Positions 34,967 to 36,932 of a DNA stretch of 64,000 nt are shown here, piece by piece. The notes below the pieces were generated by a model that searched no databases, had not been told where the DNA came from, and saw only the letters and a program-made list of their open reading frames with translations. Position numbers and translations under genes: made by a program. The stretch is taken from sequence record MN850585.1; one strand, 5' to 3'. How positions within the stretch are numbered: the stretch's first letter is position 1; the number at the start of each line of letters is the position of its first letter. This DNA is from Escherichia phage skuden.

Positions 34967-35338
34967 ATGAAAGCTAAGAGTGCAAAAGACTTTTATTGCT
35001 TCCTACAATCCTATATCAATTCCGTGCAAAATGGTGAAAGGTACAGCCTTAATGATGTTATCCCAACACCTTTGACATGGAGACTCAGTAAATGGCCTGA
35101 AGAAGATATTACACCAACAAGCAAACAACACACCTACAAACCTGAAATCAATATTCCAGACTCTGAGAACCTATTATATCCAATGTTCCATATTGTTGGT
35201 CTTGGGAGATTCCTTATGGATATTCAGTATGTAATTGGTAAAGGTTATAAGGTTAAAGGCATTGTTGTTGGTGATGTATCTCCACACCACAAAGGTTATT
35301 TTAGACTAAACGCACATTTAGAGGCTAAAAAGAAATGA
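34967..35338 (+). CDS. hypothetical protein, paralogous to N-terminal domain of next gene
   Basis: 123 aa; shares YxP...FMD(I/L)QY pattern with residues 1-115 of 35335..36468. Confidence 0.45.
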   Translation: MKAKSAKDFYCFLQSYINSVQNGERYSLNDVIPTPLTWRLSKWPEEDITPTSKQHTYKPEINIPDSENLLYPMFHIVGLGRFLMDIQYVIGKGYKVKGIVVGDVSPHHKGYFRLNAHLEAKKK

Positions 35339-36468
35339 TTAAAGCAAAGACTTACCCAGACTTTAAAGAGTTTGTGAAGGGCTTCATTGCAAACGTAAAA
35401 GCTGGTAAGAGATATGATTTTAGAGCATATCAAGAGGCTATTTTACCGCTTACCTATAGTTCGTATTGGCCTGAAGCTGATATTGCAGAAGTTGAGGAGT
35501 TTGACTACAAACCAGACTACAAAGTTCCATTTAGTGATGAGTTGCTTTACAGCATTGGTGCTCAAATGAGAACTTCTGACTTCTTCATGGACTTACAATA
35601 TGCAATTATCAATGGTAAAGATGTTGATACAATTTATTGTGAATGGCTGGCAAGAGTTAAACCATTCTCAATGTTGAATGCTAAGTTGAAGGATGCTATC
35701 AAGCCGCCAGCAATCACTCAGCAGCCAACCAATCAAACAGTAAATGAAGGTGGTACGCTTACCCTAAGTGTTGTTGCAACGAATGCCACTGGATATCAAT
35801 GGAAAAAGGATGGTGAGGATATCACTAGCGCCACATCTGCAACCTACACAAAACAGTCTGTATTACCTTCTGATGCAGGTTCATACACTTGTGTTGTATC
35901 TGGAGAGGCTGGGACAAGTGTTACCTCAGATGCGGCAACAGTTACTGTTAATGCACTGCCTGTGATTACACAGCAGCCTTCTGGTCAGACCGTCAATGAG
36001 GGTGGAAACATCAACTTGGAAGTGACTGCAACAGGTGCAACAGGTTACCAATGGAAGAAAGATGGCTCTGACATTCCTTCAGCTACAAATGCTACCTATA
36101 GCAAGTCTGGTGCGCTGCCAGCAGATGCAGGTTCATACACTTGCGTTGTAACAGGTGCGGGTGGTGCAGTGACATCTAATGCTGCTGTAGTAACTGTGAA
36201 CGCACTTCCAGTAATCACTCAACAGCCAACCAATCAAGAAATCACTGAAGGTGAGACCTTAACGCTGAATGTTGCGGCAACAGGTGCGACAGGTTACCAG
36301 TGGAAGAAAGGTGAGGAAGACATCCTCGATGCAACTACTGCAACTTACACCAAAGAAGGTGCAACTGCTGCTGATGCAGGAAGCTATACATGTGTAGTTA
36401 CTGGCGCAGGTGGCTCTGTAACATCTAATGCAGCAACAGTTACTGTTAACCCAGCAGGGGAGGCATAA
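35335..36468 (+). CDS. protein with three tandem Ig-like domains
   Basis: 377 aa; three ~83-aa repeats P(V/A)ITQQP(S/T)(G/N)QTVNEGG...ATGYQWKKDG...(D/S)AGSYTCVV(T/S)G..G..TS(N/D)AA(T/V)VTVNA with the Ig Y-x-C signature. Confidence 0.55.
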   Translation: MIKAKTYPDFKEFVKGFIANVKAGKRYDFRAYQEAILPLTYSSYWPEADIAEVEEFDYKPDYKVPFSDELLYSIGAQMRTSDFFMDLQYAIINGKDVDTIYCEWLARVKPFSMLNAKLKDAIKPPAITQQPTNQTVNEGGTLTLSVVATNATGYQWKKDGEDITSATSATYTKQSVLPSDAGSYTCVVSGEAGTSVTSDAATVTVNALPVITQQPSGQTVNEGGNINLEVTATGATGYQWKKDGSDIPSATNATYSKSGALPADAGSYTCVVTGAGGAVTSNAAVVTVNALPVITQQPTNQEITEGETLTLNVAATGATGYQWKKGEEDILDATTATYTKEGATAADAGSYTCVVTGAGGSVTSNAATVTVNPAGEA

Positions 36469-36932
36469 TGCAACTCTCAAGAAAAGGTTTAGAAGCTATT
36501 AAGTTCTTTGAAGGTCTTAAACTAGAGGCTTACGAAGATTCTGCTGGAATCCCTACAATTGGGTATGGGACAATCCGTATTGCTGGTAAACCTGTTAAGA
36601 TGGGTATGAAGATTACCGCTGAACAAGCTGAACAGTATCTTCTCGCAGATGTTGAAAAGTTCGTTGCAGCAGTGAACAAATCCATCAAGGTTCCAACTTC
36701 CCAGAATGAGTTTGACGCACTTGTAAGTGAAACATACAACATTGGCATCACAGCTATGCAAGACTCTACATTTATCAAGCGCCACAACGATGGTAATAAG
36801 GTCGGTTGTGCAGAAGCTATGCAGTGGTGGAACAAGGTTACAGTCAAAGGTAAGAAGGTCACTTCAAACGGCCTGAAAAACAGACGTAGAATGGAAGCTG
36901 ACATTTATCTTGACAGTGTATATCCAAAGTAA
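36468..36932 (+). CDS. endolysin, phage lysozyme (GH24 family)
   Basis: 154 aa; GLEAIKFFEGLKLEAYEDSAGIPTIGYGT matches GH24 lysozyme N-terminus; ATG overlaps upstream stop. Confidence 0.8.
   Translation: MQLSRKGLEAIKFFEGLKLEAYEDSAGIPTIGYGTIRIAGKPVKMGMKITAEQAEQYLLADVEKFVAAVNKSIKVPTSQNEFDALVSETYNIGITAMQDSTFIKRHNDGNKVGCAEAMQWWNKVTVKGKKVTSNGLKNRRRMEADIYLDSVYPK

Follow-up and report, generated by a model that had tools for sequence, protein, structure and literature searches.

The 64,000-nucleotide stretch of DNA analysed here (the window) is a Felixounavirus genome, and Escherichia phage finno shares 97.5% DNA identity with it. Within the window, a 377-amino-acid plus-strand ORF (35335..36468) carrying Ig-like domains is preceded by a small ORF and followed by an endolysin gene, and the three genes are flanked on each side by a terminator-like hairpin. 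Every ORF named in a preliminary description of this DNA was recovered at the same position. The features of the unit, together with two capsid genes from the opposite strand, are as follows:

34929..34942, plus strand: GC-rich hairpin GGGGC-tgat-GCCCC, read from the sequence between the upstream gene and the small ORF; 5' boundary of the three-gene unit
34967..35338, plus strand: stand-alone paralogue of a capsid-binding domain (CapBD), 123 aa, 14.2 kDa, pI 9.3 (phrog_4463; homology to the N-terminus of the putative decoration protein Hex-Dec)
35335..35706, plus strand: CapBD of the putative Hex-Dec, aa 1-124 (near-identical to 9NCF chain S over the residues modelled there)
35707..35958, plus strand: Ig-like (I-set) domain 1 of the same protein, aa 125-208 (Pfam Ig_3, I-set, Ig_2; repeat boundaries)
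35959..36207, plus strand: Ig-like domain 2, aa 209-291 (Pfam; repeat boundaries)
36208..36465, plus strand, with the stop codon ending at 36468: Ig-like domain 3, aa 292-377 (Pfam; repeat boundaries)
36468..36932, plus strand: 154-aa GH24 endolysin, encoded by the last of the three genes (PF00959, E 2.5e-40; phrog_7)
36942..36969, plus strand: intrinsic terminator AGGCTCC-ttcg-GGAGCCT followed by TTTTTATTTTT, 3' end of the unit (terminator scan; wV8 annotation)
19597..20703, minus strand: major capsid protein, the partner to which the CapBD binds (E 2.5e-247 to 9ncf_A)
20737..21114, minus strand: Dec, a trimeric beta-tulip protein that is the second decoration of the capsid (9ncf_J, 'Head stabilization/decoration protein', E 2e-77)

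In phage wV8 the site equivalent to the 5' hairpin is annotated as a rho-independent terminator; in the window, the consensus terminator scan made no call at this hairpin, and its T-run is weak. A scan of the window detected no sigma-70-like promoter in the gap between the hairpin and the ATG of the small ORF. The same gap holds a conserved CTATTTATAAGG, which in part overlaps the ribosome-binding site and was rejected as a late-promoter motif because its 14 matches in the window (8.2 ± 2.8 expected) do not amount to enrichment. The Ig-domain gene adjoins the endolysin gene because both sit, with the small ORF, between the two terminator-like hairpins, and the order of Ig-domain gene followed by lysin also occurs in Mooglevirus, in Kolesnikvirus and in a divergent metagenomic lineage. 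In Felix O1 the transcripts of ORFs 36 and 37 were reported to be maximal at 60 min, alongside those of other structural genes, while the lysin transcript peaked earlier, at 25 min, so that co-transcription alone may not account for the pattern.

When the 377-amino-acid protein was compared with proteins of known structure by phmmer, it aligned from residue 1 with Hex-Dec of phage Bas63 (PDB 9NCF chain S; E 7.8e-279) and with gp20 of Shigella phage Sf14 (PDB 9C2D, 9c2d_S; E 5.7e-170). The preliminary description had offered a misplaced structural accessory as one of two possible roles, and this suggestion was borne out in the homologues, which are modelled in the Bas63 and Sf14 cryo-EM maps and, as gp36 of Felix O1, were identified in virions by mass spectrometry (14 peptides, 44% coverage). 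A distance of 14.6 kb separates the gene from the capsid gene, which is on the opposite strand, and the structural module is more than 10 kb away. On the basis of these matches, we consider it highly probable that ORF 35335..36468 encodes Hex-Dec, a Hoc-like decoration protein of hexamer centres, that its link to the lysin is positional and that the upstream ORF is a duplicate of its CapBD. A head decoration role for the triple Ig-domain protein of Felix O1-like phages is already published; placement on the capsid has been shown in homologues, and for the window protein we infer it from near-identity.

Bas63 (Escherichia phage JohannRWettstein, Felixounavirus; PMC12609058) provides the closest comparison, as its Hex-Dec belongs to the same family and the same genus. 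The CapBD, Ig1 and Ig2 are about 96% identical to those of the window protein over residues 1-291 and the last Ig domain is near-identical, the capsid protein partner (about 99% identical) and the beta-tulip Dec are the same, and in Bas63, too, more than 10 kb separates the Hex-Dec gene from the structural module. The two proteins differ in that Bas63 has four Ig domains and the window protein three, and the Ig3 module of Bas63 is exactly the one missing. Sf14 gp20 (Mooglevirus; PDB 9C2D/9C3A; PMC11821841) also consists of an N-terminal CapBD, of 118 aa, followed by three Ig-like domains, and its gene stands in the same order of paralogue (gp21), gp20 and endolysin (gp19); however, it comes from another genus, its CapBD is 85% identical to that of the window protein, and an 8-nt gap rather than an overlap precedes the lysin gene. 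The PHROGs label for the Dec ORF is 'tail protease', which the Bas63 paper describes as inaccurate (PMC12609058).

In the T=9 heads of Bas63 and Sf14, as resolved by cryo-EM, the CapBD sits at the centre of the pentamer-proximal hexamers (PMC12609058, PMC11821841), and in Sf14 gp20 residues Arg79 and Arg107 contact Asp221 of the capsid protein (PMC11821841). Both arginines were present in the window Hex-Dec and in all Hex-Dec sequences aligned, and the alignment places Asp221 in the window major capsid protein (...KIRD221AYL...). In the homologues the largely helical N-terminal domain of ~120 residues binds as a monomer at the centre of each of the 60 hexamers next to the pentamers, where Arg79 and Arg107 are salt-bridged to Asp221 of the capsid protein, and the window protein very probably does the same. 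By analogy with T4 Hoc, the three acidic Ig-like domains would project from the capsid as a flexible fibre, which probably either adheres weakly and non-essentially to surfaces or glycans or controls virion clustering. A CapBD profile search of 1.84 billion representatives returned only 12 clusters (the contig was traced for one of the 12), whose lengths and domain layouts resemble those of Ounavirinae proteins, and it yielded no functional lead from relatives elsewhere.

Hex-Dec resembles Hoc of T4 in several respects: each is a monomer at hexamer centres that combines one capsid-binding domain with an acidic string of Ig domains acting as a fibre, the number of Ig domains is variable, and T4 Hoc itself is non-essential. 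The capsid-binding domain, however, is C-terminal in Hoc and N-terminal in Hex-Dec, the two domains are topologically distinct with minimal sequence conservation according to the Bas63 paper (PMC12609058), and Hex-Dec is limited to pentamer-proximal hexamers. Matches to the PHROG families labelled 'Hoc-like' (phrog_2973, 4069 and 3945) covered residues ~121-290 only, which is the Ig region. Hex-Dec is thus an analogue of T4 Hoc and not a member of the Hoc family. The T5 protein pb10 (PDB 5LXK) shares the layout, with the domain that binds the capsid at the N-terminus and an Ig-like domain at the C-terminus (Ig similarity E 2e-11), but it has a single Ig domain, the match covers residues 217-289 only, and no similarity was detected between its capsid-binding domain and the window CapBD.

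Most database records treat the Ig protein as a tail protein, under GenBank and PHROG labels such as 'tail protein', 'major tail protein' and, for phrog_3995, 'tail', and its Ig domains match major-tail-protein PHROGs as well. These tail-family matches are limited to the Ig domains, whereas both 9NCF and 9C2D have the chain built into the capsid, and the authors of the Bas63 study regard the 'tail protein' annotation as incorrect (PMC12609058); we therefore find a tail function hardly credible. The label, common in Felix O1-like genomes, is wrong, and its replacement by a Hoc-like head fibre, which the gene very probably encodes, would be useful for annotation.

The Ig region of the ORF matched Ig_3/I-set/Ig_2 three times (E 1e-33 to 4e-26 in Pfam) and is acidic, with a pI of about 4.1. 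The Pfam matches above the curated cut-offs were of the Ig superfamily, plus a marginal Inhibitor_I42, and no wall-binding domain was among them. The preliminary description had spoken of three near-identical Ig repeats that would also be tandem repeats of about 250 bp in the DNA; the three modules were confirmed, but at 70-73% protein identity 'near-identical' was an overstatement, and the DNA array did not materialise. Tandem Repeats Finder reported no such array because the repeats are too diverged (about 70-75% nucleotide identity), and the repeat search detected only short three-copy families with a spacing of 249-252 bp. Across the genus the number of Ig modules in Hex-Dec ranges from 1 to 4. 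An apparent five-Ig variant in ULIM8 was dismissed as a tblastn artefact that had joined the paralogue to Hex-Dec, the gene itself encoding 377 aa. Domain 3 of the window protein corresponds to Ig4 of Bas63, and module number varies by in-frame gain or loss of whole modules between repeats; the window protein equals Bas63 Hex-Dec minus one module. The Ig string is a natural display scaffold of variable length and could be of use in the engineering of phages for display or therapy.

As the preliminary description had noted, the stop of the Ig ORF overlaps the start of the endolysin gene, with one base shared (TAATG at 36466-36470), and a GGAGG Shine-Dalgarno sequence lies 5 nt upstream of the lysin start. 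The lysin is a complete single-domain globular enzyme, near-identical to a solved endolysin (PDB 7M5I; E 2.7e-96). The absence of an adjacent holin-like protein was also confirmed, as the 12 ORFs lying between 33338 and 38981 all lacked a transmembrane-like segment, and there was no holin candidate within about 2 kb of the lysin; the Felix O1 genome paper likewise reports that the holin is not next to the lysin. The membrane-like ORF nearest to the lysin (39250..39783) falls in a PHROG without an assigned function.

The general capacity of Ig-like domains for glycan binding, the 1-nt overlap with the GH24 gene and the position of the Ig gene next to the lysin throughout the subfamily are all compatible with the other role raised in the preliminary description, namely that of a carbohydrate- or peptidoglycan-binding partner of the endolysin, translationally coupled to it for joint action in lysis. 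The overlap is not conserved across the subfamily, however, being replaced by gaps of 8 nt in Sf14 and about 50 nt in Kolesnikvirus, and in Felix O1 the lysin transcript does not peak together with that of the Ig gene. Furthermore, the N-terminal domain is a dedicated capsid binder with conserved contact residues, the protein forms part of the capsid in two cryo-EM structures and is present in the virion proteome of Felix O1, and the lysin, whose structure is solved, is a complete globular enzyme. The homologues are abundant virion proteins, which is one half of the refuting outcome named in the preliminary description (the other half being a deletion that leaves lysis unaffected), and the partnership is already largely refuted; we regard it as very unlikely. 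What connects Hex-Dec to the lysin is gene position and expression, without a function in lysis.

The ORF upstream of Hex-Dec (34967..35338) has equivalents in gp37 of Felix O1, gp42 of wV8 and gp21 of Sf14. The earlier claim that the N-terminal domain of the Ig protein is paralogous to this entire ORF proved correct (37% identity over 101 aa, Hex-Dec residues 2-100, BLASTP E 1e-16), and both the ORF and the N-terminal ~120 aa of Hex-Dec match phrog_3995 and phrog_4463. The upstream ORF arose by tandem duplication of the CapBD alone and has no Ig domains, and it overlaps the Hex-Dec gene by ATGA (35335-35338), an arrangement that is kept even in a lineage with only 45% paralogue identity. Relative to the upstream ORF, the Ig ORF occupies the -1 frame, and its ATG is preceded at 3 nt by a shift-prone AAAAAG; these two features speak for a programmed -1 frameshift at A_AAG (35329-35332) that would join the two ORFs into a product with two tandem CapBDs. 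However, the -1 frame is closed by a TAA stop at 35326-35328, 7 nt upstream of the ATG, which leaves one codon as the shift site; an X_XXY_YYZ heptamer is absent, the only candidate being T_AAA_AAG; and a GAGG 10 nt upstream of the ATG points to ordinary initiation from a Shine-Dalgarno sequence. In addition, relatives in which the upstream ORF is a pseudogene retain the junction and an intact Hex-Dec, and the solved chains begin at Met1 of Hex-Dec. The fusion was rejected on the grounds of the closed frame, the ordinary Shine-Dalgarno sequence and the retention of the junction where the upstream ORF is dead, and we give it next to no credence.

The paralogue was intact in 232 of 252 relatives and deleted or fused in about 8%; it is missing from vB_CECAV_041, Z31 and REP5/10 and forms a fusion in SP3_SHan-2021. 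Its dN/dS of about 0.1-0.2 (0.11-0.19) indicates purifying selection, and we regard the ORF as a genuine gene that is constrained, transcribed late and dispensable. All 15 paralogues aligned carry Gly in the column of Arg79 and His in that of Arg107, and their C-terminal lobe is nearly invariant. An AlphaFold2 model of the paralogue was only moderately confident (pLDDT 63.8, pTM 0.64), and Foldseek searches with it placed 9ncf_S and 9c2d_S at the top (probability 0.96 and 0.92, TM about 0.4) with no other credible match. These predicted-fold matches support homology to the CapBD, although the model is too poor for surface analysis.

The paralogue was not on the Felix O1 virion mass spectrometry list, though smaller proteins were detected there, and it is evidently also missing from the VpaE1 virion list; the two cryo-EM studies (Bas63 and Sf14) showed no density on hexamers other than the pentamer-proximal ones. 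Therefore, any role of the paralogue on the capsid would have to be transient or minor. A term search of the Bas63 and Sf14 cryo-EM papers found no mention of the paralogue or of a gene upstream of Hex-Dec, and the paralogue is the only new element at the locus. Our best guess, held with low confidence, is that it is an accessory protein associated with the capsid, either absent from the virion or present sub-stoichiometrically, whose binding specificity has changed. A more specific and rather doubtful possibility is that it constitutes a third protein interacting with the capsid that has so far gone unrecognised, and that it transiently plugs acidic hexamer centres or holds their place, which may control Hex-Dec binding; such a plug could act in procapsids or at the 20 three-fold hexamers that lack Hex-Dec, and might thereby set where or when Hex-Dec binds. 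The isolates in which the paralogue is deleted or fused are ready-made mutants.

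The Ig-domain ORF matched two virion cryo-EM chains among PDB sequences, 9NCF chain S (E 7.8e-279) and 9C2D/9C3A chain S (E 5.7e-170). The latter is from Shigella phage Sf14, in which the protein, gp20, was described as a "Hoc-like" decoration protein and was seen by mass spectrometry; its N-terminal 118 residues form a mainly helical capsid-binding domain (CapBD) that binds, as a monomer, in the middle of each pentamer-proximal (quasi-3-fold) hexamer of the T=9 capsid, where Arg79 and Arg107 anchor it through salt bridges with residue Asp221 of the major capsid protein (Commun Biol 2025, PMC11821841). 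The former is from Escherichia phage Bas63, a Felixounavirus, in which the same protein was named Hex-Dec; it has four predicted Ig domains there (one to three in other Felixounavirus species) and its gene lies >10 kb beyond the structural module (Sci Adv 2025, PMC12609058). The ORF coordinates in the preliminary description were confirmed, and the genes concerned are as follows.

34967..35338, + strand: upstream paralogue, 123 aa
35335..36468, + strand: Hex-Dec, 377 aa (CapBD, aa 1-124; three Ig domains)
36468..36932, + strand: GH24 endolysin
19597..20703, - strand: major capsid protein, partner of Hex-Dec (E 2.5e-247 to 9ncf_A; Asp221 present)
20737..21114, - strand: beta-tulip decoration protein Dec, 125 aa (9ncf_J, E 2e-77)

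Both Arg79 and Arg107 are present in the window Hex-Dec, whose gene is separated from the capsid gene, which is on the other strand, by 14.6 kb that include the tRNA cluster. Alignment to Bas63 Hex-Dec starts at residue 1; residues 1-291 match 1-291 and the window Ig3 corresponds to Bas63 Ig4, such that the two proteins differ essentially by one whole Ig module (Bas63 residues ~292-374), absent from the window protein through a clean in-frame indel at the NALPVITQQP linkers. In Felix O1, the two-Ig homologue gp36 (31.6 kDa), encoded next to lysin gp35, was found in CsCl-purified virions (14 peptides, 44% coverage), and ORFs 36 and 37 reach maximal expression late (60 min), with the structural genes, by RT-PCR. 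By sequence, then, the Ig ORF encodes a capsid decoration protein that was already known and characterised by structure; this finding is not new. The preliminary description had offered a structural accessory as one of two options, with virion proteomics as a check; homologues are abundant virion proteins and decorate the capsid in the cryo-EM structures. A tail location ("tail protein") comes from database annotation only, and the structures contradict it. Dec likewise carries a propagated misannotation, "tail protease", in PHROGs (phrog_4146).

Given the near-identity to homologues in which this was shown, CapBD would plug 60 hexamer centres per head through Arg-Asp contacts. Analogy with T4 Hoc suggests that the three Ig domains form a flexible acidic fibre, which would help virions to adhere weakly to glycans or surfaces or would modulate their aggregation; an acidic Ig string (pI 4.1 here) is common to the window protein, T4 Hoc and Bas63 Hex-Dec, as reported for the latter two. 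Ig copy number shifts by whole-module in-frame indels, the outcome expected when repeats of ~70% identity with conserved linkers recombine. The three Ig_3/I-set/Ig_2 domains (aa 125-208, 209-291 and 292-377; 83-86 aa each), separated by conserved NALPVITQQP linkers, are indeed repeats, but "near-identical" overstated their likeness, since identity is 70-73% for protein and ~70-75% for DNA. Of the supposed ~250-bp DNA tandem repeats, only short three-copy seeds at 249-252 bp spacing were recovered; Tandem Repeats Finder reported no 250-bp array.

The 3.1-kb region shares 94-97.5% DNA identity with >200 Felix O1-like myoviruses (Felixounavirus, Ounavirinae), the nearest being Escherichia phage finno. 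The reference trio in wV8 comprises gp42 (hypothetical), gp41 ("tail protein") and p13 (endolysin), annotated with one rho-independent terminator on each side. In the window the first two ORFs share an ATGA overlap, and the last base of the Ig ORF stop is also the first of the lysin start (TAATG), with GGAGG 5 nt 5' of the lysin ATG. The other option in the preliminary description was a carbohydrate-binding partner for the lysin, and Hex-Dec/endolysin adjacency is kept subfamily-wide: it is seen in Sf14, in Erwinia and Hafnia phages of Kolesnikvirus, and on a divergent metagenomic contig of 87 kb. Against the partner option, the homologues are abundant virion proteins, which is the first half of the refuting observation that the preliminary description had named, the overlap is not conserved (8-nt gap in Sf14, ~50 nt in Kolesnikvirus), and the lysin, a GH24 protein (PF00959) nearly identical to solved endolysin 7M5I, is a complete globular enzyme. 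The pairing is most simply read as membership of one transcription unit, flanked by two terminator-like hairpins, rather than as a functional partnership, with the caveat that the Felix O1 lysin signal peaks at 25 min versus 60 min for ORFs 36 and 37. As first noted, no holin is adjacent (0 of 12 ORFs with a transmembrane-like segment, 33.3-39.0 kb), and the Felix O1 genome paper likewise places none beside gp35. The nearest membrane-type protein 3' of the lysin on the same strand, at 39250..39783 (+; 177 aa; phrog_4343), is a possible holin or spanin, with two segments (aa 91-124 and 134-152) that look transmembrane. A 471-aa protein with DUF2828 and DUF7788 (31841..33256, -; phrog_850, "RNA-binding protein") directly adjoins the tRNA gene array, judging by synteny with wV8.

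The stand-alone CapBD duplicate is not covered in the literature searched (the word "paralog" is absent from the Bas63 paper, PMC12609058, and the Sf14 supplement, PMC11821841) and is the only fresh point of this analysis. The proposed paralogy between ORF 34967..35338 and the N-terminal ~120 aa of the Ig ORF held (37% identity, E 1e-16). The paralogue, a member of phrog_4463, is intact in 232/252 related phage records, with dN/dS of 0.11-0.19 versus 0.04-0.06 for CapBD, and the paralogue/Hex-Dec/lysozyme triad with overlapping junctions is kept in a lineage whose paralogue is only 45% identical; from these comparisons it is a real, maintained gene. Kolesnikvirus has Hex-Dec without the paralogue, which suggests that the duplication is confined to the Felixounavirus/Mooglevirus side of the subfamily. 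Every paralogue aligned has Gly in the Arg79 column and His in that of Arg107; the protein is basic (pI 9.3 versus 5.2 for CapBD), and its C-terminal half hardly varies across the family. The only credible PDB matches of its AlphaFold2 model, of moderate quality (pLDDT 64), were the two CapBD chains.

Evidence from virions argues against a major virion role for the paralogue: gp37 is missing from the Felix O1 virion proteins, though 11.7-13.7-kDa proteins were seen there, VpaE1 added only gp54, gp58 and gp68 to that list, and neither cryo-EM study (Bas63, Sf14) showed density on other hexamers. The gene is also dispensable, having been lost in at least two ways among relatives. An internal deletion of ~220 bp, together with loss of the start codon, is seen in vB_CECAV_041, Z31, REP5/10, fKMPT1 and P54, and ~20 records are alike in retaining a 46%-coverage remnant. 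In SP3_SHan-2021, residues 1-48 of the paralogue are fused to Hex-Dec by recombination at a shared WPE(E/A)DI-coding repeat. Our guess, held with low confidence, is that the paralogue has a capsid-related role, either transient or sub-stoichiometric.

Only 12 clusters (one traced to its contig) among 1.84 billion representative proteins matched a profile built from the paralogue and CapBD, and their lengths and domain layouts resemble those of Ounavirinae proteins; CapBD appears to be a lineage-restricted invention.

The paralogue/Hex-Dec junction (35327..35338) reads AAA AAG AAA TGA, and A_AAG is shift-prone in E. coli. Fusion of the two ORFs by -1 frameshifting was rejected: a TAA 7 nt ahead of the ATG shuts the -1 frame, the signals for initiation are ordinary, and relatives with a dead upstream ORF keep the junction. 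A recurring late-promoter motif was rejected because it was not enriched. GU169904.1 ("Staphylococcus phage SA1", 147 kb) carries, at ~142.8-143.6 kb, a segment with ~97% protein identity to Felix O1-type paralogue plus Hex-Dec, which is unexpected for a Staphylococcus phage and suggests a mixed or chimeric record.
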